The notes below the pieces were generated by a model. The model was given only the letters and a program-made list of their open reading frames with translations. It was not told the DNA's origin and made no database searches. A stretch of 64,000 nt of DNA. It comes from a virus. Position numbers and translations under genes: made by a program. Position 1 is the first letter of the stretch. The number at the start of each line of letters is the position of its first letter. Below are positions 3,976 to 30,938 of this stretch, piece by piece. The DNA is taken from positions 1 to 64,000 of the IMG/VR virus record IMGVR_UViG_3300047471_000178. One strand, 5' to 3'.

Positions 3976-4605
3976 CTATGCCTTGTCTCGTTTGCGAATG
4001 AATTTACCTTTGCCTGACTGTTGCCAGTATCCATAGACTGAGGCCGTACTGACGCCTAGCTTCTTGGCAATCTTAGGACCACTCAGGCGCGGCTTGCCAT
4101 TGCGACCGTTCAGATAGTCACCCACCAGTTTAATGCGATCCGGCGTCATATACACGGCTCGTCCCCAATGGTATCCGTTTCCTTTGCGGGCCTTGAGAGC
4201 GGCGATACCGGCTGCGGTCCGTTGGGCAATGATCTGGCGTTCAAACTCCGCGACCAATCCAAGGACTCCGAGTACGAGCTTGCCGGAGACGGTTCCGAAG
4301 TCGAAACTCTCCTGGATGGAACGGAAGTATGCCCCTTTGGCATAGATTTGATCGAGACGATAATACAGTTGTCGCATTGATCTTGCGAGACGATCCAATC
4401 GCCAGACGACCAGTGTGTCGCCCGGACGCAAATCTTTAATAGCCAAATCGAGAGACGGACGCCTAGCGGAAGCTCCTGATATTTTTTCGACGTGAAGATT
4501 ATCATCTCGAACGCCAGCCGCCCGGAGCGCATCAAGTTGTAAGTCGAGTCGCTGATCTTCTGTGCTAACGCGGGCATAGCCAACTAAAAACCCAGTTTCG
4601 GGCAT
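3976..4605 (-). CDS. small serine recombinase (resolvase/invertase family)
   Basis: 'VGYARVSTEDQRLDLQLDAL...GDTLVVWRLDRLARS...VAEFERQIIAQRT' plus a C-terminal HTH. Start set at 'MPETGFLVGYARVS'. Confidence 0.85.
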   Translation of the reverse strand: MPETGFLVGYARVSTEDQRLDLQLDALRAAGVRDDNLHVEKISGASARRPSLDLAIKDLRPGDTLVVWRLDRLARSMRQLYYRLDQIYAKGAYFRSIQESFDFGTVSGKLVLGVLGLVAEFERQIIAQRTAAGIAALKARKGNGYHWGRAVYMTPDRIKLVGDYLNGRNGKPRLSGPKIAKKLGVSTASVYGYWQQSGKGKFIRKRDKA

Positions 4606-4646
4606 GATTACGGACACCGTTAAATCTAACAAAATGCGTACAGGGT

Positions 4647-14489: not shown

Positions 14490-15020
14490 ATGCCTGAGCT
14501 TAAACTACATCGGCATGAGAAATTCGCTCGCGCGTATGTAAAGCTAAACAACGCGGCTGCGGCTTATCGTGAAGCCTATGGGCAAAAAGGCCATACAGCT
14601 AGGATCAATGGCTGGTGTTTACTGAACCAGCGCGTCGGGGTCAGGGCTAGGGTCGAGGAGCTTAGGGTTCAAATGGCTAAACGTGCTGACATCACTGAAG
14701 ATAAAATCTTGAGCGATTATCAGTGGGCCATCGAATCAGCTAAAGCTCAAGACAAGCCCAATGAGGTTACGGTAGCCGCTACGGCTCAAGCTAAACTTGT
14801 AGGCTTACTGCGCGACCGGATTGAAACAGGTGAGGTTGGCGACTTTGAGAATATGAATACGCTCTCTGAGGTCCTAGAGGCCGTCAAGGATTTAGTTAGC
14901 CCTGAGGCTGCCCTTGCCCTAGCCAATGCCTTCAAAATCGCTCAGTCGCCTCCTGAAGGCCAAAGCGAGGCATCTGACAGTTTGGCTAAGGCTCAGTCCC
15001 CCTCAGATTCAGTGAACTAG
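14490..15020 (+). CDS. terS: terminase small subunit
   Basis: 'HRHEKFARAYVKLNNAAAAYREAYGQKGHTARINGWCLLNQRVGVRARVEELR...ITEDKILSDY' fits the Terminase_2-type TerS pattern. An alternative ATG lies at 14463. Confidence 0.75.
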   Translation: MPELKLHRHEKFARAYVKLNNAAAAYREAYGQKGHTARINGWCLLNQRVGVRARVEELRVQMAKRADITEDKILSDYQWAIESAKAQDKPNEVTVAATAQAKLVGLLRDRIETGEVGDFENMNTLSEVLEAVKDLVSPEAALALANAFKIAQSPPEGQSEASDSLAKAQSPSDSVN

Positions 15021-17703: not shown

Positions 17704-18567
17704 ATGTCCGACACCAGAATCATGAGCAGGCCCTACGTCATAGGGGGCACCAATACGTCCTTTGTGGTTCCTGCTGCCGGTGCATCCCTTCTTCTCGATC
17801 CCGGTATACTGACAGCCACGGCAACGATGGCTTATAGCAGCAGAAAACTTCGCACGGCTTATGCTGGTAAAGCCCTCAAGGCGAGGACAACGGACGGAAC
17901 CGATAGCAATGCGGACATAGGGTTTACCGGAACGGATTTGGATACAGGCGCGCTTGCTACCTTGGTTTCCGGTGCGGGCGCGACTGCCGCTGGCATAGAT
18001 ACTTGGTACGACCAGACCGTAACGGCGGTTACTAATAACAACGGAACCCGCACACAAATTCCATTGATTGTGACGGGCAGCGCCAACATAACCCAGAACG
18101 GTCATGTATGGGCAGCGGGAACGACGGCTCATTGCTTGTTCAGTTCCAGCGGAGCACTTGGGTTTGCGCGACCAACTTCGTTCGCTATCTTGGCCAGATA
18201 TGACACGGTTGCAAATAACCAAGTAATATTCGGAGATTTTAATGGTGGTCTAGAATCCCTTATTCAGGGTGCTAGCACGTTCTTTGGGATGAGTAACGGG
18301 TCGTTCATGCCCAGCACCGTGGCAGCAGACACCAGCTTGCATTCGTTCTTTGGGACATTCAATGGGGCAAGTTCGAGCATAGTCGTTGACGGAACAACAA
18401 CCAACGGAAATGCCGGAGCCAACGTCACCATCAACGAAATCGACCTGTGGATCTTTAACGGTAATGCCCATATTGCCGAAGTCATTTTCTTCCAGAACAC
18501 GACATTAAGCGGTACGGATATAACGACCATTCGTACTAGCTGGCAGAGTTATTGGGGTGCCCCGTGA
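17704..18567 (+). CDS. concanavalin-A-like (AbfB-N/LamG-like) beta-sandwich protein
   Basis: 'AYSSRKLRTAYAGKALKARTTDGTDSNADIGF...GIDTWYDQT' resembles the motif I recall from the GH54 AbfB catalytic-domain fold and from phage fibre lectin domains. Confidence 0.4.
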   Translation: MSDTRIMSRPYVIGGTNTSFVVPAAGASLLLDPGILTATATMAYSSRKLRTAYAGKALKARTTDGTDSNADIGFTGTDLDTGALATLVSGAGATAAGIDTWYDQTVTAVTNNNGTRTQIPLIVTGSANITQNGHVWAAGTTAHCLFSSSGALGFARPTSFAILARYDTVANNQVIFGDFNGGLESLIQGASTFFGMSNGSFMPSTVAADTSLHSFFGTFNGASSSIVVDGTTTNGNAGANVTINEIDLWIFNGNAHIAEVIFFQNTTLSGTDITTIRTSWQSYWGAP

Positions 18568-18569
18568 CG

Positions 18570-21194
18570 ATGCGGATCGGCACCAACCTGACTCCACTCG
18601 ATGCTGGCAATGCCACTGAACGCCCATTCCTGAATGAACTCAAGGTAATGGGCGGTTATTTCACCTACACTTCTCCGAATGGCAGCGACACCGGAGAAGA
18701 AGTCGCACTCTACAAGACCGGATTGGACGCTAACGGATACTGCACGTCATTCAGCGGCTTCACGTTCGGCGCTCTACAGATGATGATTAATGGCGGCGCA
18801 TGGTCGTCGAATCCAACCGGAAACTATTATGTTTTCATGTGTGACCTCAACGGTGGCACACCATCATTCAGTTTCACTACGAATAGTGCTGTTACTTCGG
18901 TGGATAGCAGTAATGCCGCTTCAGGACGATGGCTTCTAACCACATCTAACAACGGGAATCCCATCAGAATATGGCAGACCGCGACAGGAACTCCACACGC
19001 CACTAACTTCCGCCTGATTTGGGGCGGCGTTGAGAATGTCGGTGACGTTGCCTCTACTGCTGGCACTGGCGTAGGAACTACCGTCGGCGTCAATGGCGTA
19101 GGAACCAGAGAGGCGCTCTATAACAGCAATGTGGCTGGCGGTCAGCCTTGGGGAGGGTTTAATCCAACCTTCCTAGCCAAGATGGCCCCGTACTCGTCAA
19201 TCCGGTTCATGGATTGGGGCGCAACGATTGCAAGCTGCCAAGTTGATTGGGCAGATCGCCGTCCAGTGGGATGGGTTTCTTATGTTGATGGTTTCAACTT
19301 CCCGACCAAGTTTGGTGTCACACCCAACCCAGATCAGGGCGGAGGAAAGAGCGAAGTCCCCTATGAGGTAATGTGTGCACTCTGCAATCAGTTAGGCGTG
19401 GATATGCACATCTGTATGCCTGGTTTGGCAACGGATGATTTTGTTTTGCAGCTTGCGACGTTCGTACACAGCGATGCGACTTACAAACTTGTTTCGCCTC
19501 ACAACGTTCGCGTCGAATATTCCAACGAAGTTTGGAACCAGGGGCAATTCGGTGTATTTCTTGGTACGATCACGGCAAGCTGTGCTGCTGGTGTCCTCAA
19601 TGTTACTTCCGTAGCCGGACTTACTGGAGGCAAACTATTTGCTGGTATTAACGGATGTTGGTTGGAAGACGGCAGCAATGATGGGCACGGTGATTCTGCG
19701 CTTGCTGGTTCTTATCCAGCAATCATTACTAGCTTGGGAACAGGAACTGGAGGCACCGGGACTTATAACATCAGCCGCAATCTGACGTTTGGTTCAGAAA
19801 CAATCAATGTCCATCTCAACGTCAATGCCTGTATGTCGAATTTGGATTTAGAAGCGAATAATAACGGAGGCTTAGGGGGAGCGAGTAATTTTACGTTTGT
19901 TGTCCAATATGGGGGCCTTCGCGCTGCCCAAGTCGGCAACATTTGGAAGGACGTTTGGGGCGGCGATGCCTCGCGTGTCATAAGATTATTCGGCGGCTGG
20001 TCAGGCAATAACGGGACTATTCAAGGACCTATGCTTCCGCAGACTTGGTTTGATTCAACGGCGCTGTTGGCGGCAACATTTACCGGAACCATATCCGGCA
20101 CAACGCTTACAGTCAGCGGCGTTACCAATACCATCACACCTCATACTCTTGTCACTGGTTCCGGTGTTGCAGCGCAGACATACATCCAATCTGGAAGCGG
20201 AACTACTTGGATTGTCAACAAGTCTCAGTCTGTTGGTCCGGTCAGCATGACATCAATAGGATACAACGGAACGCTGGCTTCCAACGTAGATGAATTGTGT
20301 ACTGCTCCTTATTTCAGCGCCTACGATGCCAGCAATCCGTGGACGGACATGCCTTATGCGTGGCATAATAATCTTTCCGTTGGAGTTGTAAAAGTTGCCA
20401 ACGCTGTTCTTAACGGCGGAGATATTCCCTACGATGGTGGCGGAAGAACCATTCACAGCGCAGATGGTGGTGCAACTTACACGCTGACAAGTAGCTTGGG
20501 TCTATCAGGCACACCCGCTGACATGACGATAGTGAGCGGGACATTTGATACATTGTGTCATGCAGGGGCAACTATCGTCGTTGATTCCTGTTCATCATTT
20601 CCATTGCTGTCGCGCCATGCTGCGATAGGCTTAAATAATGTCGGACCAGGTTATATTATGGCTTTATGCTTCAATGCTATCGATGGAGGTTGGCAGATTG
20701 TAGATAACTATCCCTCCAGCGGTCAATATCGAATTGATGCCGCAGTTCCTGGCGGAAGCGGGGTTACCGGTTGGATTGCAGTTAATTACGCAACTGCTGT
20801 CACCAATGGACTTACATTGTCATGCTATGAAGGCGGACAACAATTCGTTTCATCCGTCCATCAAGGAGGCGACCTTGATACTCTCTGGAAAAACTTCTGG
20901 CGCAGTTCATCAGCCTATACAGTGTTTCTGACTTTCCTGCAAAACATGGATAGCAATGCTACTATAACCATGTTTCATAACTTCAATGACGTTGCCCCGT
21001 TTACGTTTGGTGAATATTGGGGAGCAATGGAATATATAACGCAAACGCCAAACTCGCCACGCTATCAAGCTATTTTGGATTTTACTGGCACATCAGGCCC
21101 AACCACCCCTGGTACTGTCGGTCCTACCACCATCGGAATGAACAGCCGATATGGTGTCTATAAATCTCGCCCGACAAAGATACCACTAAGCTAG
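18570..21194 (+). CDS. large glycoside-hydrolase-like protein (clan GH-A TIM-barrel motifs)
   Basis: 'YSSIRFMDWG...EVPYEVMCALCNQLGVDMHICMP...VRVEYSNEVWN' is a catalytic NE-type motif pattern. Start moved to ATG 18570. Confidence 0.45.
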   Translation: MRIGTNLTPLDAGNATERPFLNELKVMGGYFTYTSPNGSDTGEEVALYKTGLDANGYCTSFSGFTFGALQMMINGGAWSSNPTGNYYVFMCDLNGGTPSFSFTTNSAVTSVDSSNAASGRWLLTTSNNGNPIRIWQTATGTPHATNFRLIWGGVENVGDVASTAGTGVGTTVGVNGVGTREALYNSNVAGGQPWGGFNPTFLAKMAPYSSIRFMDWGATIASCQVDWADRRPVGWVSYVDGFNFPTKFGVTPNPDQGGGKSEVPYEVMCALCNQLGVDMHICMPGLATDDFVLQLATFVHSDATYKLVSPHNVRVEYSNEVWNQGQFGVFLGTITASCAAGVLNVTSVAGLTGGKLFAGINGCWLEDGSNDGHGDSALAGSYPAIITSLGTGTGGTGTYNISRNLTFGSETINVHLNVNACMSNLDLEANNNGGLGGASNFTFVVQYGGLRAAQVGNIWKDVWGGDASRVIRLFGGWSGNNGTIQGPMLPQTWFDSTALLAATFTGTISGTTLTVSGVTNTITPHTLVTGSGVAAQTYIQSGSGTTWIVNKSQSVGPVSMTSIGYNGTLASNVDELCTAPYFSAYDASNPWTDMPYAWHNNLSVGVVKVANAVLNGGDIPYDGGGRTIHSADGGATYTLTSSLGLSGTPADMTIVSGTFDTLCHAGATIVVDSCSSFPLLSRHAAIGLNNVGPGYIMALCFNAIDGGWQIVDNYPSSGQYRIDAAVPGGSGVTGWIAVNYATAVTNGLTLSCYEGGQQFVSSVHQGGDLDTLWKNFWRSSSAYTVFLTFLQNMDSNATITMFHNFNDVAPFTFGEYWGAMEYITQTPNSPRYQAILDFTGTSGPTTPGTVGPTTIGMNSRYGVYKSRPTKIPLS

Positions 21195-22214
21195 ATTCTC
21201 TGGATAGAGTTCTCGTCCGGCAGGCAGACTTTGCACAAGCGCCCCGCCAATAACCTCATTAACTTGGGCAGGGGTATAAGCACCTTCCGGACATGGCCTG
21301 AGCATCTCAAAGTCATCTGGACTTAGGAGATGCCCTCTCTCGCAATCAGACTTGAGTCTTAAGGCCCGTCTCTGGACGATAACAGACTCATCCTCATTAT
21401 TCTCGACTCGCTTGACCCCATCTCCCATAGCCATCTCTAGTTCCCAAGTGGCTTTCACCATTTCTTTCCATGATCGATGGGTAAGTGCAAAAGCATGATC
21501 TGGGCCGCTTCTCGTATTGTCATCCGTAAAGTGCTTCTCGACAACACTCGCACCAAGCGCGACAGCGCCCAAGACGGAAGAATGTCCAGGCGTATGGTCA
21601 GAAAGACCAAGTGTAAGATGAGGCCAGTGAATCGCATACGAACGCAGGACATTAATGTTGACATGCTTGAAGTTCTCCAGTGAGCCTGTGTAGTTGGTGT
21701 TGCATTGCAGGAGAGTTAATTGATGATTGTGTCTGAGCACCGTCTTTACGGCTATCTCCACCTCTTCCATCGTGGAGGCTCCTGTAGCTAAATAAACCGG
21801 CTTCCATTGACAAGCGATGTGCTTGATTAACGGAAGATAGGTAATATCCCCTGACCCGATCTTATATCCACTGACCAAATCAAAGACCTGATCGACAGCC
21901 TCGAAGTCGTATGGTGTAGTCATGAAATGAATGCCCACACTCTTAGCCGTCTCGGCAAGTATGGAGTTCCAATCGCGGTTGATGCTGTATTGCTGATAGA
22001 CTTCATAAACGGGTTTTTCCCACGCGGCCTGATGGGCGCTCTTGCCGATGGACTCGAACCCTTGACGGCTCACGATGGACTCAGCCTTGAAATGCTGAAA
22101 CTTAGCGCAGTCTGCACCGGCTTCCTTTGCTAACTTGATGAGTTCCCTGGCTCGCTCAAGCTCACCATCATGGTTAGCCCCGATGTCTGCGATGAAATAG
22201 GTCACTTGTCCCAC
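21186..22214 (-). CDS. neuB: NeuB-family nonulosonic acid synthase (PseI/LegI/NeuB type) with SAF domain
   Basis: 'YFIADIGANHDGELERARELIKLAKEAGADCAKFQ...KIGSGDITYLPLI...LGLSDHT'. The C-terminal region is SAF-like. Confidence 0.85.
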   Translation of the reverse strand: MGQVTYFIADIGANHDGELERARELIKLAKEAGADCAKFQHFKAESIVSRQGFESIGKSAHQAAWEKPVYEVYQQYSINRDWNSILAETAKSVGIHFMTTPYDFEAVDQVFDLVSGYKIGSGDITYLPLIKHIACQWKPVYLATGASTMEEVEIAVKTVLRHNHQLTLLQCNTNYTGSLENFKHVNINVLRSYAIHWPHLTLGLSDHTPGHSSVLGAVALGASVVEKHFTDDNTRSGPDHAFALTHRSWKEMVKATWELEMAMGDGVKRVENNEDESVIVQRRALRLKSDCERGHLLSPDDFEMLRPCPEGAYTPAQVNEVIGGALVQSLPAGRELYPENLA

Positions 22215-22420
22215 CTATACTGATCTGTGTGTTGTTTGACGAACCAGCAGCAATAGGTAACGAGAAAACTTATCGGCATTAGAACATCATCCCACCACGG
22301 AAAATGATATTTGAAGGCCCATCTAATCTCGTCGGCATCTAAAAGAATCAATAAGCAAAGGACCCATACCGAAATGCGGTTTGCCCAATATTGCCACACC
22401 ATCCTTCTGTAATTGGTCAC
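22202..22420 (-). CDS. small membrane protein
   Basis: 72-aa ORF with two hydrophobic segments. Overlaps the neuB start by 13 nt. Confidence 0.4.
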   Translation of the reverse strand: MTNYRRMVWQYWANRISVWVLCLLILLDADEIRWAFKYHFPWWDDVLMPISFLVTYCCWFVKQHTDQYRWDK

Positions 22421-22528
22421 GGCTTAAATCCCCTAAAGCACTTGAACATTCCTCAATGCGAGATGCTCAGGTAGCCATCGCCATCGGCGCGAGCCCACGC
22501 CAACTCAGCCAAATCAAGACGGGTATAA

Positions 22529-23632
22529 TCAAATGTCATCTGTTGCCCACTTCACAATCTCCCGCATATGCTTAAGATGCTTTGGCTTGGGATCGTAAGA
22601 ACATACCTCAAAGGTGATAAGTTCTTCATCCTCTAACTTCTCAGCAACTGGGCATGGACTTCCATTAAATATGCGATTGAGCGTCGGTGAGTAGCCCTTG
22701 CGGATTGGAAAGTTACAGGCCCACAACCTGTCAAGAATCTTCTGTCTTTCCCCGTCCAGTACCCTGAAGGCCGCGATATAATAAGAGTGAGTGCAGTCAA
22801 TATCCCTCTCAGGAGTAATAACCCAAGGAGAATAAAACATATCGATCATTTCTTCGGCGAGCGCTATTCTTCCCTTCATAATCACAGGAGCCTTGACTAG
22901 CTGGGCGCAGGCAATCGCAGCCGTAGGTTCTGTGATACGGAGGTTGAGCCCTGTCTGACTAGAGCCTCCCAACTCTCCGTGGTTGATCGCGCCTTGTAGT
23001 CTATGTGCCAGAGTGCTGTCGTTCGTAACAACAACGCCACCTTCACCTGCTTGGATGTGCTTGTGGATGTTGAGAGAGAAGACTCCGATGTGCCCGATGG
23101 TTCCGGCATAATGACCTCCCTCCCTGGCGAAGGGTGATTGAGCGTTGTCCTCAATCATAACAACTTTATTGGAGTCGCACCAAGAGCGAATGCATTGTAG
23201 GTAAGCTGGATGCCCAAATAAGTTCGTCACAATAATAGCCTTCGGGGGGGTAGAGCCGAAGTTGTTCATGTTTATCGAGAAGCGAGTCGTCTCGATGTCG
23301 ATGAACACAATATGTGCTCCTAACACCTTCGCACAGGCAGCCGTAGCAGACATACTGTATGCGGTCGTCCAGACCACCGAATCCGGGCCGATTCCAACGG
23401 CTAAACATGCTGCCAATAGTCCACTGGTTGCACTGTTACATGGTATAGCATGTTTGACCTTGAATGCATCGCACCATTCTGATGCCAACCGCTCGACCCA
23501 ATAACCACCTGTCGGAATGCCTCCGAGATATCCTGATAATGGCTTCCGCATTGCATCAACAATGTTGATTCCTTCTGTTCTTCCGATAGTGAAGAACTTT
23601 GGAAGCTGCTCTAGTGGAGACGGCCCATCCAT
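22529..23632 (-). CDS. pseC: DegT/DnrJ/EryC1-family sugar aminotransferase (PseC-like)
   Basis: Family-typical length and segments, for example 'AIPCNSATSGLLAACLA' and 'VFSLNIHKHIQAGEGGVVVTND' (PLP lysine context). Confidence 0.8.
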   Translation of the reverse strand: MDGPSPLEQLPKFFTIGRTEGINIVDAMRKPLSGYLGGIPTGGYWVERLASEWCDAFKVKHAIPCNSATSGLLAACLAVGIGPDSVVWTTAYSMSATAACAKVLGAHIVFIDIETTRFSINMNNFGSTPPKAIIVTNLFGHPAYLQCIRSWCDSNKVVMIEDNAQSPFAREGGHYAGTIGHIGVFSLNIHKHIQAGEGGVVVTNDSTLAHRLQGAINHGELGGSSQTGLNLRITEPTAAIACAQLVKAPVIMKGRIALAEEMIDMFYSPWVITPERDIDCTHSYYIAAFRVLDGERQKILDRLWACNFPIRKGYSPTLNRIFNGSPCPVAEKLEDEELITFEVCSYDPKPKHLKHMREIVKWATDDI

Positions 23633-23796
23633 TTGGTTACGCTCTTGTCGTATTGTATTATCTGCTTGGTAATCTGCTTGGCTTTGTGGGGATGATTCTG
23701 AAAGGCGAGAACCAATAACTTCATCCAGATTTTGTTGTTTTTGGTTCTGATACTTCTTATGCGGCGAACGATTTTTTCATTTGATAATCTTGGCAT
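23611..23796 (-). CDS. small basic protein (61 aa), uncertain
   Basis: ATG 23796 is preceded by GGGAGA. It fills the 124-nt gap between the pseB-like and pseC-like genes and overlaps both. Confidence 0.3.
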   Translation of the reverse strand: MPRLSNEKIVRRIRSIRTKNNKIWMKLLVLAFQNHPHKAKQITKQIIQYDKSVTKWMGRLH

Positions 23797-24713
23797 ACGA
23801 TCTCCCTTAGTTGCGGAACAGTAAGCCATTCCGAGTTGGTGTCGCTCGTGTAACGGAATCCCTCCCCGACTCTCAGGCCGAAATTTTCCTTGGATAGAGT
23901 AATAAGATAGTAGGGATGGAGGTCAAAGGCATGACGAGATTCATCCTCGGTCATAAGACATTCGTTAATCTTTTCTCCCGGCCTGATGCCGGTCACGATA
24001 TGATCGGTGTCAAATGCCGCTACCAAATCTATGATCTTGAAGGACGGTATCTTGGGGATGAATATCTCCCTTCCTACCATCGTCTTATGGCAGGTCAGAA
24101 CGAGATCGATGGCTTGATCCAGGGTAATATGGAACCGGGTCATCCTAACGTCTGTTACAGGTAATGGCTTGTTCTCTAAGGCAAGTTTCCTAAAGAAAGG
24201 AATAACACTACCACGGCTGCCAGCAACATTACCGTAGCGCACGACACTGAAGGCCGTGGCTCCGGCAGACAGAGCATTCGCTGCCACAAATACCTTTTCT
24301 GCCGCCAGTTTAGTTGCACCGTAAAGATTGATTGGATTGACAGCCTTATCAGTAGATAGGGCGATAACTCTCTTAACTCCTGATCTAATTGCTGCTTTTG
24401 CGACATTTTCGGCTCCTGTGACGTTGGTAGCCACCGCCTCTGTTGGATTGTATTCCAAGATTGGTACGATTTTTAGGGCTGCCGCATGAATGACTGTCTC
24501 AATGCCGTGCATGGCAAGCTCAAGTCTTCCCTGATCTCTAACATCACCAATGAAGTACCGCATACAGCTTTGCGGAAACTCCCGCGCCATAACGTCTTGT
24601 TTCTGTTCATCGCGGCTGTAGATCACCACGCGATCAGGGTTTGTTTTCAGGATTCTGCGGACGAAGGCATGACCGAATGAGCCGGTTCCCCCGGTGATTA
24701 AGACATTCTTCAC
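23757..24713 (-). CDS. pseB: UDP-GlcNAc 4,6-dehydratase (PseB/FlaA1-type short CapD-like)
   Basis: 'VLITGGTGSFGHAFVRRIL...VIYSRDEQKQ...YGATKLAAE'. GTG start overlaps the upstream stop (GTGA). Confidence 0.85.
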   Translation of the reverse strand: MKNVLITGGTGSFGHAFVRRILKTNPDRVVIYSRDEQKQDVMAREFPQSCMRYFIGDVRDQGRLELAMHGIETVIHAAALKIVPILEYNPTEAVATNVTGAENVAKAAIRSGVKRVIALSTDKAVNPINLYGATKLAAEKVFVAANALSAGATAFSVVRYGNVAGSRGSVIPFFRKLALENKPLPVTDVRMTRFHITLDQAIDLVLTCHKTMVGREIFIPKIPSFKIIDLVAAFDTDHIVTGIRPGEKINECLMTEDESRHAFDLHPYYLITLSKENFGLRVGEGFRYTSDTNSEWLTVPQLREIVCQDYQMKKSFAA

Positions 24714-26737
24714 GCTGTAGCCCTCAATGGTGTAGCTTCCACAACACTATCGCCAACAACACGAGAAATATCACCGCGCTGAAGGCAATCAGAAATGACA
24801 CGGAAGGTGTTATCATACGCGGTACATATCCTCTTGAACTCTGGTTCCTTATGAGCAAATGACAGGGCATTCGACGCAATGATAAGGACACCCTGTTGAG
24901 CCATCTCCATCATGAATAGTGACCTGATGTGATTGTTGAGGAAGGTGAGATGCTGGTTGGGATACCAGCCGTCAATCAGGATGTAGTCGCTTATTCCGGT
25001 ATGCTTCAATGAAGCTAGGATGTGACGCTCCAACCTAGCCCCCATCTTGCAAAGGTAGTCGCACACATTCTCTCGCTCGATCTTCTTGATGGTTGCGATG
25101 GCTGCTGCAATGGAAAGAGTCTCACCAAAGAAGGTGCCGGAGTAGAACACATCCGGTGAGTTCATCTTCTCCATGATGTTACGCTTACCGACTAGGGCTG
25201 ATATGGGCATTCCGTTCGCCATAGCTTTACCGAAGCAGGCGAGATCTGGTGTTACACCGTACAGAGCCTGTGCTCCGCCCATGTCATGGCGGAATCCGGT
25301 GATGATTTCGTCAAAGATCAGGACGATGCCGTGCTTGTCGCATGTTACACGCAGCCAATCCAAATATTCAGGATCATCAATGGGCTCTACGATGATAGCG
25401 GCGACTTCATCCATAACGTACGGGTGCATAAAATTATAAGGGAGAGAATTTATCTTTTTAGATGAAATTCTAGTTGTTAAAGTTCTTACATCTTCTGGGA
25501 TTCCAGCCCTTCTGTCAGTAGAAGAAATAGACCAGTCAGACCAACCGTGGTAGCCTCCAAGTAGAATATGTTCTCTGCCCGTGTAGGCCCTAGCTAACCT
25601 GACAGCCGCTGTTGTTACATCTGTTCCGGACTTGCCCAGTTTGACCATTTCTGCGCAGGGGATGTGCTTGCAGAGAAGCTCTGAGAGTTCGGACTCAAGC
25701 TCGGTGGCAAGGGAGAAGCTGATGCCGTTGTCGAGTTGCCTGCGAATAGATTCGTTAACGTCTGGATCGTTGTAGCCAAGAATGACAGGATACAGAGCGC
25801 CAACAAGATCGACGTAACGGCTCCCATCCACATCAAAGATATAACCACCATCACCATAGTTAGCGTATAGTGGGGAGCGACCTTCTGGGAACTGTATGTG
25901 ACTCTTGCTGAAGGTCTGGGCTCCAGTCGGAATGGTTTTGATGGCCCTGTTGAATACTCTGGCAGACTCTGTAAATGTTCGTGGGGATAGTCGCTCTTCT
26001 GATAGCGCTTCGTAAAACCTCTCATTGCGTATTCCTCCAGCATTTAGTTCTCTGATATTTGGATAATTGTCTAGGAAGTTACGGATATAGACGTAAGATG
26101 CTCCGGTGTGGGCGCATTTGGTAGCTACTGCTTTGCAGAACTCCCAATCTTTCTCGGTATCCAAAACCCACCGTTCCCTGTCCAATCCCGGCAGCGGGCA
26201 GGTCAGGTTGACCACCTTGAAACGTGATCTATTGCGAACAATGAATTGCGTAAGGCAGTCCCTATCGACCGGGCTAGTTGCTTCCTTCCATGCCGACTCC
26301 AGAGCGGCGAAGGTAAAGCACTCAGTATCAAGACCATCAGGATAAGTAGGGGGGTAGCAATTAGACGCATATGATGCATCCATCATCTCCCTTAGTTTGA
26401 TGACTTCATTGATGATACCTGGGTCAATGAATGGGCAATCACAGGTGAACCTGAGGACAATATCGGCCTGATATTGCTTTGCACACCAGTAATATCTGTC
26501 AAGAACATCCGTCTCACTGCCTCTGAAACATTCGATCTTATTCTCGTTACAGTATTGTTGTATGACATCATCTCTGTGATCTGTTGACGTTGCGATGACC
26601 ACTTCATCGATGAAGGCTGAACACCTGATGTTATCGTAGGCCCAGCGCAGGACAGGCTTGTTGCTAAGCTGGCGCATGACCTTCCCAGGTACGCGGGTAG
26701 AACCCATTCTTGCTTGGCAAATAGCTACTATTTTCAT
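24710..26737 (-). CDS. fusion protein: SpsF/CMP-sugar cytidylyltransferase-like N-domain plus class-III (GSA-type) aminotransferase C-domain
   Basis: N-domain: 'KIVAICQARMGSTRVPGKVMRQLSNKPVL'. C-domain: 'FDEIITGFRHDMGGAQALYGVTPDLACFGKAMANG'. Start ATG 26737 overlaps the upstream stop (ATGA). Confidence 0.75.
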   Translation of the reverse strand: MKIVAICQARMGSTRVPGKVMRQLSNKPVLRWAYDNIRCSAFIDEVVIATSTDHRDDVIQQYCNENKIECFRGSETDVLDRYYWCAKQYQADIVLRFTCDCPFIDPGIINEVIKLREMMDASYASNCYPPTYPDGLDTECFTFAALESAWKEATSPVDRDCLTQFIVRNRSRFKVVNLTCPLPGLDRERWVLDTEKDWEFCKAVATKCAHTGASYVYIRNFLDNYPNIRELNAGGIRNERFYEALSEERLSPRTFTESARVFNRAIKTIPTGAQTFSKSHIQFPEGRSPLYANYGDGGYIFDVDGSRYVDLVGALYPVILGYNDPDVNESIRRQLDNGISFSLATELESELSELLCKHIPCAEMVKLGKSGTDVTTAAVRLARAYTGREHILLGGYHGWSDWSISSTDRRAGIPEDVRTLTTRISSKKINSLPYNFMHPYVMDEVAAIIVEPIDDPEYLDWLRVTCDKHGIVLIFDEIITGFRHDMGGAQALYGVTPDLACFGKAMANGMPISALVGKRNIMEKMNSPDVFYSGTFFGETLSIAAAIATIKKIERENVCDYLCKMGARLERHILASLKHTGISDYILIDGWYPNQHLTFLNNHIRSLFMMEMAQQGVLIIASNALSFAHKEPEFKRICTAYDNTFRVISDCLQRGDISRVVGDSVVEATPLRATA

Positions 26738-27648
26738 AGTCCTGCCTGCTTTCTTACTTCGATGCATACCTTAAGAACCTCAAGACCTTCTTCTCCAGTG
26801 CAGCCGATAGTGTCCTTGCCATCGCATCGTGCAAGAAACGATTCCATTTCTTCCACATAATTTTCTTCCCAACTATCCTGCCCCTCGAATTGATCCATAA
26901 TCACCTCATCGGCTCTGCGTAACCATGCAAGACGATGCACCAGATCAGCAATGATGGTAGCCCCGGTTCCGACAATCAGGAACTGTCTTATTTCCGGTTG
27001 CGTGACATAATCGAGGTGAATCGACGTGCGACAACCATTCTCGTGGGTAAGGAGGATGTCTGAGATGTCATCCTTTCCATCGCTAAGGCGAGTAGCAGAA
27101 CCAGACACGTTCCCACTGCCAAGAAGATAAATGGCAAGATCAATTTCGTGACTCCAGTTGAGGACGACACCATCCCTGAGATACGGTGGCTTCTCGCTAT
27201 GCTGAGCGAGAGTGAAGTTAGACCAGAGAGTTTTGCCGATCATTCCGGCATCTAACCATTCCTTGGCCTTACGAACACAACTATGCCATCTGAGATTATA
27301 GCCTACCATCCATTTGTTATTTTTGTAGTCATGGTCTTTTAAGTGAGCTTTAATGTAGTCATAGGCAATCTGTGAATCAGCAATTGGTTTCTCTATAAAG
27401 ATGTTCTTCCCTGAGAATACAAGTGCTTTTAGGTGGTCAAAGTGCATCCGTGTCGGACTAGCAATAATAATTGGATCAGACATCTTAATGAGAAATTCCA
27501 AGTCGTCACAGGTCCATCCAGACTTCTTGGACTTGTCTGGGTCATAACCAATGACTTCGGTTTGACCGAGTTTCTGCCATAGGTTGGTAGCGTGGCGCTT
27601 ACCAATTGATCCAAGTCCTATCACGCCAATGGTTCTGACCTTAGTCAT
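26734..27648 (-). CDS. Gfo/Idh/MocA-family oxidoreductase
   Basis: 'VRTIGVIGLGSIGKRHATNL' is a Rossmann-type start. Start placed at 'MTKVRTIG' (alternative 27663). Confidence 0.75.
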   Translation of the reverse strand: MTKVRTIGVIGLGSIGKRHATNLWQKLGQTEVIGYDPDKSKKSGWTCDDLEFLIKMSDPIIIASPTRMHFDHLKALVFSGKNIFIEKPIADSQIAYDYIKAHLKDHDYKNNKWMVGYNLRWHSCVRKAKEWLDAGMIGKTLWSNFTLAQHSEKPPYLRDGVVLNWSHEIDLAIYLLGSGNVSGSATRLSDGKDDISDILLTHENGCRTSIHLDYVTQPEIRQFLIVGTGATIIADLVHRLAWLRRADEVIMDQFEGQDSWEENYVEEMESFLARCDGKDTIGCTGEEGLEVLKVCIEVRKQAGL

Positions 27649-28237
27649 GCAGCGGCCATCCATTGACGTTGTTTTTTTTCAGGATTGATACGGAGGTCTG
27701 GTCTTCTCCGGCTCCGTGCATGTAGCGACGGAATAGGGTGTATGCAGGATTCGCCAGCCAGAGCTGGGCGTGATCCATGTGGTAACTGAACAATCCTTGC
27801 CTGTGCTTATATTCGCGTCGGTACGAGTTCTCAGAATGGAAGTCATGGATGACGAGATAACCGTCGTCCTGAAGAACACGATCACCCTCCATCGCTATCC
27901 TGAACAGGTCCTCGCGGTCGCACAGGTACAAGCACCAACCGTAGATTACCACATCGAATCGTAGCTGTTTTATGGGCAGATCGTGCGCCATACCACGGAG
28001 AATGTTTCCTCCGGTCATGATGGCTGGCTCGATTCCGGTCGCCGCACACTTGAATTTCTTTTCCATGGTTTTTAGCCGCCATCCATTTGAGCAGCCAATC
28101 TCAAGGACGTTATTCGGCTTGATCTTGGAGAGGATCATTGCTTCCATAACCGGATCATCCTCTCCGGTCAGTTTGTCTATGTTTCGCTCAAGCCAAGCTG
28201 CGGCTTCGCCGTGGTAGAACGCTGATGATTGCCTCAT
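27641..28237 (-). CDS. class I SAM-dependent methyltransferase
   Basis: 'NVLEIGCSNGWRL' is motif I. Start ATG 28237 overlaps the upstream stop (ATGA). Confidence 0.7.
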   Translation of the reverse strand: MRQSSAFYHGEAAAWLERNIDKLTGEDDPVMEAMILSKIKPNNVLEIGCSNGWRLKTMEKKFKCAATGIEPAIMTGGNILRGMAHDLPIKQLRFDVVIYGWCLYLCDREDLFRIAMEGDRVLQDDGYLVIHDFHSENSYRREYKHRQGLFSYHMDHAQLWLANPAYTLFRRYMHGAGEDQTSVSILKKNNVNGWPLHD

Positions 28238-28728
28238 ATGAAACGCGCCCACATTGATTCGTCCACCAATTCATTGCCCACTAGGAAGTGCCATGAACGT
28301 CTGCCTTCTTCATGCATTTGCGTCTTGCGAAAGACATGGATCATGCCAATGTTGCAGGCCATTGTTCCTGCCTCTATCTTTCGTATTCCAGTGCTAAGCA
28401 ACCAATCGCAGAACGCCTTCCATGCTTCAGTCCCATATCCTTTGCCCCACACCTTACGTTCACCAATGAGGATGCCGACATCTGCTACGGAATTGGGATG
28501 GTCTATGTGGGCTGAGATAGTTCCAATGAGAGAGTTTCCATAGTGGATTTCCATGTACTTATGATGCTCCGACATCAGATTGATGTAGAACTTCTGCGAC
28601 TCTATGGAGTGGCTGCCGTGACGCTGTTCCGAATATCGCATTACGTCTTTGTCATTCAGCCACCCGACCACCCTTGGAATTGAATCCATCGACGGCGGAA
28701 GGAGTTTAAGATGGTGAGTGACAATCAT
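28234..28728 (-). CDS. GNAT N-acetyltransferase (PseH/RimL-like)
   Basis: 'VGILIGERKVWGKGYGTEAWKAFCDWL' is GNAT motif A. ATGA overlap upstream. Confidence 0.7.
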   Translation of the reverse strand: MIVTHHLKLLPPSMDSIPRVVGWLNDKDVMRYSEQRHGSHSIESQKFYINLMSEHHKYMEIHYGNSLIGTISAHIDHPNSVADVGILIGERKVWGKGYGTEAWKAFCDWLLSTGIRKIEAGTMACNIGMIHVFRKTQMHEEGRRSWHFLVGNELVDESMWARFI

Positions 28729-28883
28729 TTTTTGCGGTTATTCAGGTGTTGAATGAGGTCAGAAAGAACTTGCCAGATTATTAAGATTTCACCGTCGGCA
28801 TAGGATGCACTGCCAAGACTGCGCCTAGCTTTGAGTCTCTCCGATACTAGCTCCTCTAATCTATTCAACTTTTCTTTTGTCAT
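28725..28883 (-). CDS. small coiled protein (52 aa)
   Basis: Start moved to ATG 28883 ('MTKEKLNRLEELV'), preceded by GGAGG. Confidence 0.4.
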   Translation of the reverse strand: MTKEKLNRLEELVSERLKARRSLGSASYADGEILIIWQVLSDLIQHLNNRKK

Positions 28884-29193
28884 CGATCCTCCAGTTGCCG
28901 TATTTCTTTTTCGGTGTTGCTCCGATAGCGATGTAAGAGAATCCGCTACCAACCCCGTGGTCCCAACTGACATTTCCAACTCTATTGATTGGAGGACTTA
29001 TCCGTTTCTGGGTTAGGATAATCTTGCCCTGCTCCATGAGACTGTAGGCAACGACAGCGATGGTATTAGCCATCCCAGTAGGGTGTCTCAGTCTTTCTTC
29101 TTCCAGAAAGCCGGTGAAATAGACCAGTTTTTCTCCTGGTTCCAATTCGCGCAGGCGTCTGATGGTGTAATCATGCTCGGAGAGGAAATACAT
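28861..29193 (-). CDS. hypothetical protein (first gene of the leftward sugar operon)
   Basis: 110-aa ORF divergent from terL. Confidence 0.5.
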   Translation of the reverse strand: MYFLSEHDYTIRRLRELEPGEKLVYFTGFLEEERLRHPTGMANTIAVVAYSLMEQGKIILTQKRISPPINRVGNVSWDHGVGSGFSYIAIGATPKKKYGNWRIDDKRKVE

Positions 29194-29264: not shown

Positions 29265-30938
29265 ATGAGTGGCTTGGTCCTTCGCAATGCCATCAATGTG
29301 ATAAAACGTATCCAAGAACGTGAGCTTGCGGAAAGCAGCCTTATCGACTTCTGCCAATACGTTTGGCCGGTAGTGGAACCAGCCATTCCGTTCATCCGTG
29401 GATGGGCTATCGAAGCGATAGCGACCCATCTTCAGGCTGTTACAGAAGGCCATATCAAGCGGCTGCTCATCAACGTACCTCCTGGATTCACCAAGAGCCT
29501 CCTGACGGATGTGATGTGGCCTGCATGGGAATGGGGGCCGCGTAACATGCCGTGGCTACGATATGTCTGCGCTTCATACTCTAACCATTTGACGGAACGC
29601 GATAATATGCGTTGCCGTAATATCGTTATAAGCGATCTTTATAAGAAGATGTGGGGCGACAGATTCAAGATATCGAATGAGCAATTTACCAAGATCAAGT
29701 TTGCTAACGACAGGACGGGCTGGAAGCTGGCTACCTCGGTAGGGGGTATCGGCGTCGGTGAGCGCGGTGACAGGTTCATCATCGACGATCCGAATAACAC
29801 CATGGATGTCGAGTCGGAACAGGTCCGATTCACCACAAATATGTGGTTCACGGAAGTTGTCCCCACCCGTCTGAACAACCCTGAAGAGAGTTCAATCGTA
29901 ATCATCCAGCAGAGGTTGCATGAGGACGACGTAAGTGGGACGGCCCTCTCCAGGGAGATGGGCTACACCCATCTCATGATCCCGATGGAACACGATATAT
30001 CCCGTCATTGCACCACGGTGATAGGAATAGATGAGTTAGATCAAGAGGTTATATGGGAAGACCCAAGGGTAGAAGATGGAGTCTTGGCGTGGCCGGAGAG
30101 GTTCACCGAGAAGGTTTGTGAGGATTACAAGCGGGACCAGGGTCCCCATGCTTGGGCCGGTCAGATGCAGCAGACCCCGGAACCAAGAGGCGGTTCCATC
30201 ATCAAGCGCGACTATTGGCAGCTATGGGACAAAGACTCCTACCCCCCATTCGAGTTCATTCTGGCCTCCCTGGATACAGCCTTTACCAGCAAAGAGGAGA
30301 ACGACCCCTCCGCTTTGACCATCTGGGGTGTCTTCCGAGAAGCTATTGCTATCAATGAGTTAGATGCATCGCAGACTGGGATGCTATGGATGCAAAGGAA
30401 TGGGCAGACGATCGTCCCGGTCGAGGGTAACCCCAAGATCATGCTGATCTATGCCTGGGAGGGAAGGCTGGAATTTAGCTTATTATTTCAAAAGGTTATA
30501 GACATATGCACGATGGGAACCATACCGAAGGACGTTCCACAGTTCCCTGTGGATAGATTACTCATCGAGGCCAAGGCTAATGGCATGTCGGTAGGGCACG
30601 AACTTATCCGCCTATTCAGCGGTACTGGTAAACTTGGAATCGAGCTTATCAACCCGAAGGTCTATGGGGACAAGGTGGCGAGGGTACAGTCTATTCAGCA
30701 CCTCTTCTCTGGTGGCATGATCTACACACCGGACAAGGCGTGGGCCGACATGATGATTAACCAAGCGGCGATCTTCCCCAAGGGATCGCACGACGACTTG
30801 GTGGATTCTATGTCGCAAGCTTTACGTTATTTGAGAGATCAAGGGTTTGCGCTTAATAGGAGCGAGTATCAGAGTGACGTGGAAGACGATTTAGCTTATA
30901 AGTCTCCAACGGCCAATATGCCGTTGTATCAGGTCTGA
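29265..30938 (+). CDS. terL: terminase large subunit
   Basis: 'INVPPGFTKS' is Walker-A-like, 'DRFIIDDPNN' is Walker B, and C-terminal 'GSHDDLVDSMSQAL' is a nuclease motif. Confidence 0.85.
   Translation: MSGLVLRNAINVIKRIQERELAESSLIDFCQYVWPVVEPAIPFIRGWAIEAIATHLQAVTEGHIKRLLINVPPGFTKSLLTDVMWPAWEWGPRNMPWLRYVCASYSNHLTERDNMRCRNIVISDLYKKMWGDRFKISNEQFTKIKFANDRTGWKLATSVGGIGVGERGDRFIIDDPNNTMDVESEQVRFTTNMWFTEVVPTRLNNPEESSIVIIQQRLHEDDVSGTALSREMGYTHLMIPMEHDISRHCTTVIGIDELDQEVIWEDPRVEDGVLAWPERFTEKVCEDYKRDQGPHAWAGQMQQTPEPRGGSIIKRDYWQLWDKDSYPPFEFILASLDTAFTSKEENDPSALTIWGVFREAIAINELDASQTGMLWMQRNGQTIVPVEGNPKIMLIYAWEGRLEFSLLFQKVIDICTMGTIPKDVPQFPVDRLLIEAKANGMSVGHELIRLFSGTGKLGIELINPKVYGDKVARVQSIQHLFSGGMIYTPDKAWADMMINQAAIFPKGSHDDLVDSMSQALRYLRDQGFALNRSEYQSDVEDDLAYKSPTANMPLYQV

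Follow-up and report, generated by a model that had tools for sequence, protein, structure and literature searches.

The window analysed here, 64 kb of a 73-kb viral contig whose remaining 9 kb lie outside it, carries a leftward block of enzyme genes that, judged by sequence, is probably a vertically inherited phage pathway to a CMP-activated, further-modified nonulosonic acid of the Pse family, one that would draw on a host PseG and a host transferase. The predicted nonulosonate cassette comprises seven enzymes and is conserved and fixed across a whole phage clade. The features of the block and its divergent neighbor are as follows.

21186..22214, minus strand: NeuB-family nonulosonate synthase with a SAF-like C-terminal tail (PF03102, 228.5 bits)
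22202..22420, minus strand: orf72, a hydrophobic ORF of 72 aa in the sole intergenic gap (ORF list)
22529..23632, minus strand: DegT/DnrJ/EryC1 aminotransferase (PF01041, 153.7 bits)
23611..23829, minus strand: orf72b, a conserved short ORF located between pseB and degT (tblastn homologs)
23757..24713, minus strand: PseB, inverting UDP-GlcNAc 4,6-dehydratase (TIGR03589, 422.6 bits against a cut-off of 407.75)
24710..26737, minus strand: fusion of an FlmC/SpsF-type cytidylyltransferase and a class-III PLP aminotransferase (CTP_transf_3, 92.5 bits; Aminotran_3, 167.8 bits)
26734..27648, minus strand: Gfo/Idh/MocA NAD-dependent sugar dehydrogenase, GFO (GFO_IDH_MocA N- and C-terminal domains, 46.2 bits)
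27641..28237, minus strand: SAM-dependent methyltransferase (Methyltransf_11, 29.1 bits against a cut-off of 21.2)
28234..28728, minus strand: GNAT N-acetyltransferase (Acetyltransf_3, 59.4 bits)
28725..28883, minus strand: orf52, a short ORF preceding the GNAT gene, with an ATGA overlap (sequence reading)
28861..29193, minus strand: orf110, which opens the leftward block, its operon membership uncertain (ORF list)
29265..30938, plus strand: terL, the divergent neighbor anchoring the cassette (phrog_38, 270.7 bits)

By ORF listing and direct reading, the block runs from 29193 to 21186 on the minus strand (8,008 bp) and contains seven enzyme genes, with eight catalytic domains, and up to four small ORFs. 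A first-pass annotation had described nine to ten leftward genes ending at 28883; the leftward block stands, with the gene count revised as above and the upstream limit probably a little farther on, at 29193. The stop-start overlaps that it listed (GTGA at 24710-13; ATGA at 26734-37, 28234-37, and 28725-28) are exact, and the block is indeed antisense, flanked by rightward genes (17704-21194) and by terL, from which it diverges. Further genes overlap by 8, 13, 22, 23, and 73 nt, and the only gap is 108 nt. All of the enzyme ORFs are uninterrupted and full length, and conserved motif residues are kept where they were aligned. Among the small ORFs, orf72b has tblastn homologs (33 to 48% identity) in some 17 of the related viral loci and has no family match; orf52, also without a family match, resembles by eye, without alignment, small ORFs at the same position in the related loci L011 and L023. 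No Pfam, NCBIfam, or PHROG match was found for orf110, whose homolog was seen in L010 only (36% identity), and orf72 has no homolog among the related loci and is unique to the window phage.

The window phage encodes TerS left of the block and TerL and structural genes right of it, with a portal and an adaptor of the SU10 type; no large integrase is evident. The same gene order between terL and other phage genes was found in at least 40 independent related viral contigs, many of them approximately 71 to 77 kb. In at least 30 viral loci the order GNAT-methyltransferase-GFO-fusion-PseB-DegT-synthase is found beside terL and the portal gene, which share a strand opposite that of the cassette. A GcrA homolog encoded at 153-572 and the fact that the fusion's closest bacterial homologs are alphaproteobacterial both hint at the host, and this uncultured phage group of about 73 kb probably infects Alphaproteobacteria.

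The nonulosonic acid reading rests on an equivalog-level PseB, a full-length NeuB-family synthase, and a cytidylyltransferase domain homologous to FlmC. The family assignments of the first-pass annotation were each reproduced by profile HMMs, the kind of check that it had proposed, with E-values far beyond chance; curated equivalog scores, in turn, are reached only by PseB in the window and by PseI in its relatives. PseB exceeds the NCBI equivalog cut-off of TIGR03589, matches Polysacc_synt_2 in Pfam at 318.3 bits, and is 50% identical to Caulobacter FlmA, whereas its NCBIfam scores for FnlA and LegB are far under cut-off.

The synthase is a full-length NeuB-family match (1e-67, Pfam), as had been annotated; the SAF domain claimed with it scores 18 bits, under the cut-off of 21. 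At 259.6 bits against 399.65 for NeuB and 211.3 against 340.25 for PseI, its sequence is of a non-PseI type and at equivalog level is neither of the two. The family-conserved residues are retained, with ADI replacing AEI, and the protein is 60 to 62% identical to bacterial synthases whose gene clusters also encode PseB, an RmlD-like reductase, and a cytidylyltransferase resembling FlmC; one such cluster is a Paenibacillus flagellin/Maf island. The synthase of a related phage, L004, passes the PseI cut-off (386 bits against 340.25), and its type occurs in 33 of the 36 complete viral cassettes; in the window lineage, a NeuB-family synthase type has been swapped in.

The cytidylyltransferase and class-III aminotransferase, previously listed separately, are both present but form one protein of 675 aa, with the cytidylyltransferase at residues ~1 to 240 and an aminotransferase resembling GSA aminomutase at ~255 to 675. 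Across 29 homologs there is no variation at residues R10, S13, R15, G18, and K19 of the N-terminal GSxRxPGK stretch, which we take to be the nucleotide-binding motif, or at K504 of the FGK stretch, presumably the PLP lysine. PDB matches include the cytidylyltransferase 6oew (1.6e-32) and GSA aminomutases (9e-69). The cytidylyltransferase is of the FlmC/SpsF type rather than PseF (29 bits; cut-off, 205.7), and the N terminus is 35% identical to Caulobacter crescentus FlmC over 238 aa (E = 2e-33). More than 120 homologs share the fusion architecture, and the 43 viral proteins are monophyletic with respect to the 77 bacterial ones. A CMP transfer function is supported by the homology to FlmC, which performs the CMP-Pse step and completes the six-enzyme Caulobacter Pse pathway reconstituted in E. 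coli (PMC7591256).

The middle of the pathway is less canonical. PseB-type dehydratase aside, the annotated PseC-type aminotransferase and PseH-like acetyltransferase stand only as members of the DegT and GNAT families. The DegT protein scores 138 bits against 423.5 for PseC and 119 against 420 for LegC and is merely 27% identical to FlmB, and by sequence it is not the ortholog of PseC in the homologous bacterial clusters. Bacteria bearing the fusion have a separate FlmB-type PseC; a few have a second DegT that is 33 to 40% identical to that of the phage, and it is this second DegT that adjoins the closest bacterial copies of the GNAT gene (40 to 45% identity). The GNAT gene, present in 41/45 related viral loci, reaches 18.7 bits against the PseH cut-off of 93.1. 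Roles in C4 amination for DegT and in PseH-like acetylation for GNAT are proposed from family membership.

PseG, which the first-pass annotation could not find, was not detected in the window either by tblastn with Caulobacter FlmD or with a profile of 30 PseG sequences (best E = 0.14). It is present in 0 of 36 complete viral cassettes compared with 35 of 45 full bacterial fusion loci (p = 4e-14). FlmB-type PseC, usual in the bacterial fusion loci, is likewise absent from every viral copy, and 28 bacterial loci have PseG, PseC, PseB, and synthase beside the fusion. Without a phage PseG, UDP removal must be either performed by the host PseG, as we assume, or bypassed. That a phage would keep the first and last steps while dropping middle ones is odd and counts against the preferred reading. 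Other viral lineages contain PseB, FlmC, class-III aminotransferase, GFO, and NeuB without any DegT, a hint that the class-III enzyme could be the core rather than a tailoring aminotransferase. The ORFs scanned across the 64 kb also contained no Pfam glycosyltransferase, Maf, or sialyltransferase domain. The earlier suggestion that the phage makes its own sialic-acid-like sugar is supported as to the kind of sugar and is qualified as to self-supply, with no PseG in the clade and no transferase.

In the proposed pathway, PseB would convert UDP-GlcNAc to the UDP-4-keto-6-deoxy-L-sugar, DegT would aminate C4, and GNAT would acetylate the new amine, although neither of the latter is an ortholog of PseC or PseH. 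After UDP removal, preferably by host PseG, the NeuB-family synthase would condense the free sugar with PEP, and the FlmC-type domain of the fusion would add CMP. The other three activities are candidate tailoring enzymes: GFO would form a ketone by oxidizing a free hydroxyl (C8 or C4 of the nonulosonate), the class-III aminotransferase of the fusion would then convert this ketone to a third amino group, and one or more methyl groups would come from the methyltransferase. With no transferase encoded, the most likely user of the donor would be a nonulosonate transferase of the host (flagellin, lipopolysaccharide [LPS], or capsule type), remodeling host or virion surfaces while the alphaproteobacterial host is infected.

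The tailoring logic matches two keto-generating enzymes, PseB and GFO, with two aminotransferases. It is supported by the natural occurrence of a 5,7,8-triamino nonulosonate (PMC3210612) and by the precedent of the prophage fusion enzyme EpaA, described below. A profile of GFO, a gene present in 43/45 viral loci, retrieves from the PDB inositol dehydrogenases, 7bvj, DgpA, and YjhC (6o15), a sialic-acid-active Gfo/Idh/MocA enzyme that also supports this logic. Unassigned CMP-ulosonic acids were reported in Magnetospirillum gryphiswaldense at m/z 679.198, 693.214, and 707.230; by mass arithmetic the first equals CMP-NulOAc2 + C2H3N, i.e., a third nitrogen, and the others add CH2 and 2CH2. The fusion and GFO were found in species of this genus other than M. 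gryphiswaldense. Methyltransferase genes occur in 41/45 viral loci, and orthologs above 200 bits adjoin the fusion gene in 6 bacterial loci; the bacterial methyltransferase and GFO partners of the fusion are mostly at separate loci, which counts against the preferred reading.

The same enzymology could instead provide a sugar for the phage itself, with virion proteins, or less likely DNA, glycosylated via an unrecognized phage transferase. This is possible but not likely. Throughout the clade the cassette is a fixed core feature adjoining the packaging and structural genes; its tailoring complement differs among relatives (an additional methyltransferase, formyltransferase, PIG-L deacetylase, ATP-grasp enzyme, or extra GNAT), as for an exposed, selected surface; and many large structural proteins of the window have no family match. 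The lack of a recognizable transferase domain in the scanned ORFs argues against it, no DNA hydroxymethylation genes were seen, and we know of no precedent for nonulosonate-decorated virions.

We regard as unlikely a self-sufficient PseG-independent pathway in which the class-III aminotransferase and GFO are nonorthologous replacements for PseC and PseG, for example by oxidizing the UDP-sugar at C3 and then eliminating UDP, as in NAD-dependent GH4/GH109 glycosidases, so that only a transferase is required from the host. Consistent with it, PseG and PseC are missing and GFO and the class-III enzyme kept in the 36 complete cassettes and six other viral contigs; the viral lineages without any DegT, and bacterial clusters with the window-type synthase that also lack PseG, point the same way. 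The best NCBIfam match of GFO is UDP-GlcNAc 3-dehydrogenase (84.8 bits, under its cut-off), and GFO occurs in 6/10 PseG-less compared with 10/35 PseG-bearing bacterial loci. This association is nonsignificant (p = 0.13), however; PseG and GFO occur together in those 10 bacterial loci, the 28 loci with a full set beside the fusion argue against replacement, and GH109 and GH4 structures are absent from the best 60 PDB matches of the GFO profile. To our knowledge, no UDP-eliminating activity of the GFO type acts on a UDP-sugar.

That the product is an ordinary nucleotide-activated deoxy-amino sugar (of the bacillosamine, QuiNAc4N, or FucNAc type), with misleading NeuB and cytidylyltransferase matches, is highly improbable: DegT, GNAT, GFO, and SDR enzymes are generic for such pathways and most cassette proteins fall under equivalog cut-offs, but the synthase match is full length with catalytic residues conserved, L004 encodes a true PseI of a type carried by 33 relatives, the cytidylyltransferase is homologous to FlmC, and PseB, not FnlA or LegB, is at equivalog level. 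An origin of the block as cellular DNA, through host genes beside a prophage or a chimeric assembly, was tested and is scarcely credible, since the clade-wide synteny, the monophyly of the viral fusions, a GC content continuous with the flanks, and the flanking phage genes outweigh the finding that, beyond the clade, each enzyme is most similar to bacterial proteins, as well as the lack of a cassette in the nearest GenBank phage by TerL.

Compared with known systems, the preferred pathway starts like the canonical PseB-PseC-PseH-PseG-PseI-PseF route of Campylobacter jejuni and Helicobacter pylori and shares its DegT, GNAT, NeuB-family synthase (a true PseI in L004), and cytidylyltransferase. 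It differs in lacking PseG, in a window synthase that is not PseI, in DegT, GNAT, and cytidylyltransferase proteins scoring under the equivalog cut-offs of PseC, PseH, and PseF, and in adding GFO, class-III aminotransferase, and methyltransferase. The likeness to the Caulobacter Flm system lies in PseB, in the full-length FlmC homology, and in the GcrA homolog; in contrast to that system, the cassette lacks FlmD (PseG) and FlmB-type PseC, its synthase is merely 31% identical, its FlmC-type domain is fused to an aminotransferase, and no Pfam glycosyltransferase was found. Uncharacterized fusion clusters of Magnetospirillum, Hyphomicrobiales, and Rhodospirillales (e.g., L069) share the fusion architecture at 40 to 49% identity and the local order GNAT-GFO-fusion, with PseB and synthase nearby. 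Unlike the phage, they usually also encode FlmB-type PseC and PseG (in some cases PseG is a fusion with PseH), and some have amidino-group genes, a formyltransferase, or a deacetylase; in the phage version, PseC and PseG are stripped and GFO and methyltransferase are joined in one operon.

Nonulosonate enzymes are also phage borne in the Acinetobacter baumannii prophage system EpaA/EpaB, where a dehydrogenase and EpaA, a CTP_transf_3-reductase fusion, together act on C8 of Pse (PMC12053666). Both systems fuse CTP_transf_3 to a tailoring enzyme, but EpaA/EpaB consists of two genes in temperate phages and merely epimerizes C8 of host-made Pse, whereas the present cassette has seven genes including backbone steps and an aminotransferase as the fused partner, in a phage with no evident large integrase. 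The NeuB/PseI family has been seen on viral DNA before, as the pseI entry in a review table of phage genes altering host metabolism (PMC6359870) and as NeuB-like genes in MH319754 and LR756508. Unlike those isolated and weakly similar genes (23 to 30% identity), the cassette is a syntenic set of seven enzymes found clade-wide.

The nonulosonate block lies on the minus strand of the window, where the ORF listing gives eleven ORFs from 29193 down to 21186. These are, in order (with the source of each call in parentheses):

orf110, minus strand, first of the eleven leftward ORFs (ORF list)
orf52, minus strand, between orf110 and the GNAT gene (ORF list)
28234-28728, minus strand, GNAT acetyltransferase (Pfam)
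27641-28237, minus strand, SAM methyltransferase (Pfam)
26734-27648, minus strand, Gfo/Idh/MocA oxidoreductase, GFO (Pfam)
24710-26737, minus strand, fusion protein of 675 aa (Pfam; CTP_transf_3, 92.5 bits, and class-III aminotransferase, 167.8 bits)
23757-24713, minus strand, PseB (TIGR03589)
orf72b, minus strand, between PseB and the DegT gene (ORF list)
22529-23632, minus strand, DegT aminotransferase (Pfam, 153.7 bits)
orf72, minus strand, between the DegT and synthase genes (ORF list)
21186-22214, minus strand, NeuB-family synthase (Pfam)

The four stop-start overlaps claimed in the first-pass annotation (GTGA, ATGA, ATGA, and ATGA) were confirmed to the nucleotide by direct reading, and the remaining junctions overlap too, save for one 108-nt gap. 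A scan of the minus strand of the window for promoters and terminators yielded nothing useful. The enzyme families that had been named from the sequence alone were all reproduced by the Pfam profile search; the cytidylyltransferase and the class-III aminotransferase are both present, with the detail, left implicit in that annotation, that they are two domains of one protein. Matches at the family level place a Pse-type backbone route in the cassette, comprising the predicted PseB, aminotransferase, acetyltransferase, synthase, and CMP-transferase steps.

PseB, an inverting UDP-GlcNAc 4,6-dehydratase, is the only cassette protein in the window that passes an NCBI equivalog cutoff (TIGR03589, 422.6 bits against 407.75), and it is 50% identical to FlmA, the PseB of Caulobacter. 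The next two steps would be carried by enzymes of the expected families that score far from the pathway models: the DegT aminotransferase reached 138.4 bits with the PseC model TIGR03588 (cutoff, 423.5), and the GNAT, whose fold was matched by Pfam, reached 18.7 bits with the PseH model TIGR03585 (cutoff, 93.1). The phage DegT enzymes share 23 to 33% identity with FlmB, the Caulobacter PseC (27% for the window enzyme), whereas bacterial loci with the fusion gene keep a separate FlmB-type PseC at 42 to 55% identity. In seven of the bacterial fusion loci there is also a second DegT, similar to that of the phage (33 to 40% identity) and in most cases close to a GNAT with 40 to 45% identity to the phage GNAT. 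Because the bacteria retain an FlmB-type PseC and the phage enzymes match the second DegT and its GNAT, the phage DegT and GNAT are evidently not orthologs of bacterial PseC and PseH.

The CMP-activation step is predicted to be covered by an FlmC/SpsF-type enzyme rather than one of the PseF type, since the N-terminal domain of the fusion protein matches Caulobacter FlmC (34.9% identity over the full 238 aa, E = 2.4e-33; query sequence from the supplement of PMC7591256), which is active in a reconstituted pathway. FlmC is described as unrelated to PseF; it provides the cytidylyltransferase activity among six enzymes that together are enough for FlmG-dependent modification of flagellin in Escherichia coli (PMC7591256). 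In the window, the PseF model TIGR03584 gave 29.2 bits against a cutoff of 205.7. More than 120 fusion homologs with the same architecture were found (55 to 76% identity), many of them on contigs of 68 to 77 kb, and an identical protein is encoded on a 73,120-bp JGI contig. Residues R10, S13, R15, G18, and K19 of the N-terminal GSxRxPGK and K504 of an FGK are invariant in 29 homologs; we take the former to be the nucleotide-binding motif and the latter to be the PLP lysine. A literature search connecting glutamate-1-semialdehyde-aminomutase-like enzymes with pseudaminic acid returned nothing relevant.

The synthase of the window matches the NeuB Pfam family, scoring 211.3 bits with the PseI model TIGR03586 (cutoff, 340.25) and 259.6 bits with the NeuB model TIGR03569 (cutoff, 399.65). 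In comparison, the synthase of a related viral locus, L004 (L004:14945-15949), scores as a true PseI (386 bits; cutoff, 340.25), and a PseI-type synthase is found in 33 of the 36 complete viral cassettes. In the window and the related loci L005 and L142/L143, the synthase is of another NeuB-family type, with about 30% identity to the PseI type; the window enzyme retains the residues conserved family-wide. The synthase has therefore been replaced nonorthologously in the window lineage, in a cassette that is otherwise syntenic. A tblastn search of GenBank phages with the synthase gave only three weak matches, one of them actually bacterial. Bacterial relatives of the window-type synthase (60 to 62% identity) lie in clusters with PseB, an RmlD-like reductase, an FlmC-like cytidylyltransferase, a GNAT, and a methyltransferase. 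Such clusters occur in Parvibaculum (L144), Rubrivivax (L147), and Paenibacillus dendritiformis (L146), the last being an island that also encodes two flagellins and a transferase of the Maf type. PseG is absent, and the aminotransferase mostly absent, from these three clusters, which look like an uncharacterized nonulosonate route, possibly one independent of PseG.

PseG itself, the UDP-sugar hydrolase that the first-pass annotation had not located, was indeed not detected: tblastn with FlmD, the Caulobacter PseG, gave no match in the window, and a 30-sequence PseG profile reached a best E value of 0.14 across the window, which spans 64 kb of the 73-kb contig, and 62 viral loci. By the same searches, 35 of 45 full-length bacterial loci have PseG, in many cases right next to the fusion gene, as opposed to none of the 36 complete viral cassettes (p = 4e-14). 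Domains of glycosyltransferases, MptE-like proteins, Maf, and sialyltransferases were likewise not found by Pfam among the approximately 60 window ORFs, where a divergent transferase is conceivable; the large proteins without a family were also compared with Pfam, PHROG, and PDB sequences, and no hidden PseG or transferase emerged. The hydrolase step would either depend on the host or be bypassed; host supply is the preferred reading, given that the phage probably infects an alphaproteobacterium with flm-type genes. A bypass would have GFO and the class-III aminotransferase stand in for PseG and PseC, and in keeping with this, six IMG/VR contigs (L002, L047, L049, L053, L056, and L057) combine PseB, FlmC, the class-III aminotransferase, GFO, and NeuB but lack DegT, PseC, and PseG. 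These putatively viral contigs are of other size classes (52 to 126 kb), and neither a terL nor a portal homolog was seen near their cassette genes. Co-occurrence in bacteria, however, lends the bypass no support: PseG and GFO are found together in 10 loci, and their association is not significant (p = 0.13).

Other pathways were rejected as readings of the cassette. For Neu5Ac, the NeuB model stayed below its cutoff and NeuC was not found; for legionaminic acid, LegB scored 54.5 bits against 475 and no Epimerase_2 (NeuC-like LegG) match was present in the cassette. A plain deoxy-amino-sugar pathway was also rejected.

The window is part of a tailed-phage genome in which TerL (29265-30938), the portal, and the major head protein were recognized by PHROGs, TerS lies at 14463-15020, and two SU10-type adaptor paralogs, a tail-collar protein, and a tail-lysozyme protein are encoded downstream. 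Cellular contamination was rejected in view of the phage genes around the block and at least 40 syntenic viral contigs. Megablast of the block against GenBank phages gave no DNA-level match. In the phage with the nearest TerL (MW202675, 45% identity), terS adjoins terL and the sugar genes are absent, whereas in the window the two are about 14 kb apart, separated by ORFs without a family, two lineage-specific genes, and the cassette, which therefore occupies a stretch that the nearest relative lacks. The two lineage-specific genes are convergent to the cassette; L142 has proteins of similar size in the same place. These and further genes of the window are as follows:

153-572, plus strand, GcrA homolog (PF07750, 52.6 bits)
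572-1045, DnaA C-terminal HTH-domain protein
1227-1628, RusA resolvase
3976-4632, minus strand, small serine recombinase of the resolvase/invertase type, 218 aa
5441-5758, DUF968/HNH-like protein
10710-10786, minus strand, tRNA-like gene (ARAGORN), no anticodon determined, overlapping the 5' end of a 307-aa ORF (9836-10759)
17704-18567, plus strand, p287, 287 aa
18552-21194, plus strand, p880, 880 aa
34417-34830, plus strand, Cpn10/GroES-like co-chaperonin between the portal and head genes, kept in L142 (L142:762-1175)
59553-60062, plus strand, second GNAT-like ORF (Acetyltransf_7, 24.6 bits, below the cutoff of 27) in the tail module, directly 5' of the gene for the 972-aa tail-lysozyme protein

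A large integrase was not seen in the window. The p880 protein has few homologs, among which E322, N325-E326, and W328 as well as Y759-E760 and G762 are invariant. These NE and YEGG motifs recall clan GH-A glycosidases, and p880 may be a depolymerase; the motifs are the basis for this idea, as the AlphaFold model was poor (pLDDT 47) and Foldseek returned no significant match.

The GcrA homolog, whose only phage match was a weak one to Caulobacter phage BL57, and the alphaproteobacterial origin of the closest bacterial homologs of the fusion protein together suggest an alphaproteobacterial host. It is possible that the GcrA homolog serves to manipulate the host cell cycle. Single-protein scans of viral contigs gave nothing or very little, whereas an alignment-based scan of IMG/VR yielded 57 loci, taken with approximately 10 kb of flank on each side and with several genes assigned by BLAST or motifs. 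Gene order is nearly invariant in the 45 core-group loci, with the portal and terL genes on one strand and those for the GNAT, methyltransferase, GFO, fusion protein, PseB, DegT, and synthase on the other. In a neighbor-joining tree of 120 full-length fusion proteins, computed without bootstrap, the 43 viral proteins form one exclusive clade apart from the 77 bacterial ones, a monophyly that points to a single acquisition of the cassette followed by vertical descent. The JGI contig L143 (140,694 bp), about twice the usual genome length, holds the same cassette and is probably a concatemeric assembly of a genome of approximately 70 kb.

Inside the cassette, variable tailoring genes were seen in L012, L020, L022, L026, L030 to L032, and other related loci, as were inserted HNH endonuclease genes. 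By sequence motif, the tailoring genes encode a second methyltransferase (13 loci), a formyltransferase-like protein (7 loci), an extra PseH-like GNAT (7 loci), a PIG-L-type deacetylase (5 loci), an ATP-grasp enzyme (5 loci), and an RmlD-like SDR reductase (3 loci). The bacterial archetype, L069, has the order PseB, amidino-group genes, GNAT, GFO, fusion, PseC, PseG-GNAT fusion, formyltransferase, PIG-L, PseI, second DegT, and second cytidylyltransferase.

The GFO, class-III aminotransferase, and methyltransferase would form a module that oxidizes, transaminates, and then methylates the sugar. This is suggested by the presence of two keto-generating enzymes (PseB and GFO) with two aminotransferases, by the parallel with the prophage protein EpaA, by a known triamino nonulosonate, by the PDB relatives of GFO, and by CMP-ulosonic acids of Magnetospirillum. 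Among the PDB entries matched by a GFO profile are dehydrogenases of sugars and cyclitols as well as YjhC, a Gfo/Idh/MocA enzyme whose site of action is C4 of a sialic acid derivative. Flexibacter maritimus provides a natural example of a 5,7,8-triamino nonulosonate (PMC3210612). In Magnetospirillum gryphiswaldense, a 2026 preprint describes CMP-ulosonic acids without structure assignment (m/z 679.1983, 693.2139, and 707.2296) that lose ammonia and whose carbon backbone seems to be extended. By our own arithmetic, m/z 679.198 equals [CMP-NulOAc2 + C2H3N - H]-, i.e., a third sugar nitrogen, and m/z 693 and 707 are the same species plus CH2 and 2CH2. Other species of Magnetospirillum carry the fusion and GFO. 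A wider proposal, which we consider improbable as it stands, is that a clade of alphaproteobacterial phages makes an undescribed Pse-type ulosonic acid without PseG, its third nitrogen and extra methyl carbon coming from GFO, the FlmC-fused aminotransferase, and the methyltransferase; that this chemistry is that of the Magnetospirillum CMP-ulosonic acids; and that the sugar is used on the phage's own virions or to recode the host flagellum or envelope during infection. For the cassette sugar in general, either destination, host flagellin/envelope or virion, may apply.

The compact seven-enzyme pathway appears to be a fixed, vertically inherited core trait of an entire uncultured phage group, which implies that infection has strongly and repeatedly selected for the use of such sugars. 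The cassettes constitute a natural deletion series, with PseG and PseC missing and the dehydrogenase and aminotransferase always kept, that can expose either a way around the hydrolase step or the enzymes that supply the third amino group of bacterial nonulosonic acids. They also provide candidate genes for the unexplained Magnetospirillum CMP-ulosonic acids and for many alphaproteobacterial flagellin glycosylation islands, and the 8-kb operon is of a size suited to direct heterologous expression.

PHROGs v4 contained no family matching the synthase, GFO, or methyltransferase, and full-text searches of the literature turned up no account of phages with a complete nonulosonate cassette shared across a clade. 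To our knowledge, phage-borne genes for sialic-acid-like sugars are known mainly as single genes or two-gene prophage modifiers. Reported items are the prophage pair EpaA/EpaB, phage O-acetyltransferases acting on nonulosonates, and pseI, which a review tabulates among phage genes affecting host metabolism. EpaA resembles the fusion protein described here in that CTP_transf_3 is likewise fused, in its case to a redox enzyme, and it works with a dehydrogenase at C8 of Pse (PMC12053666).
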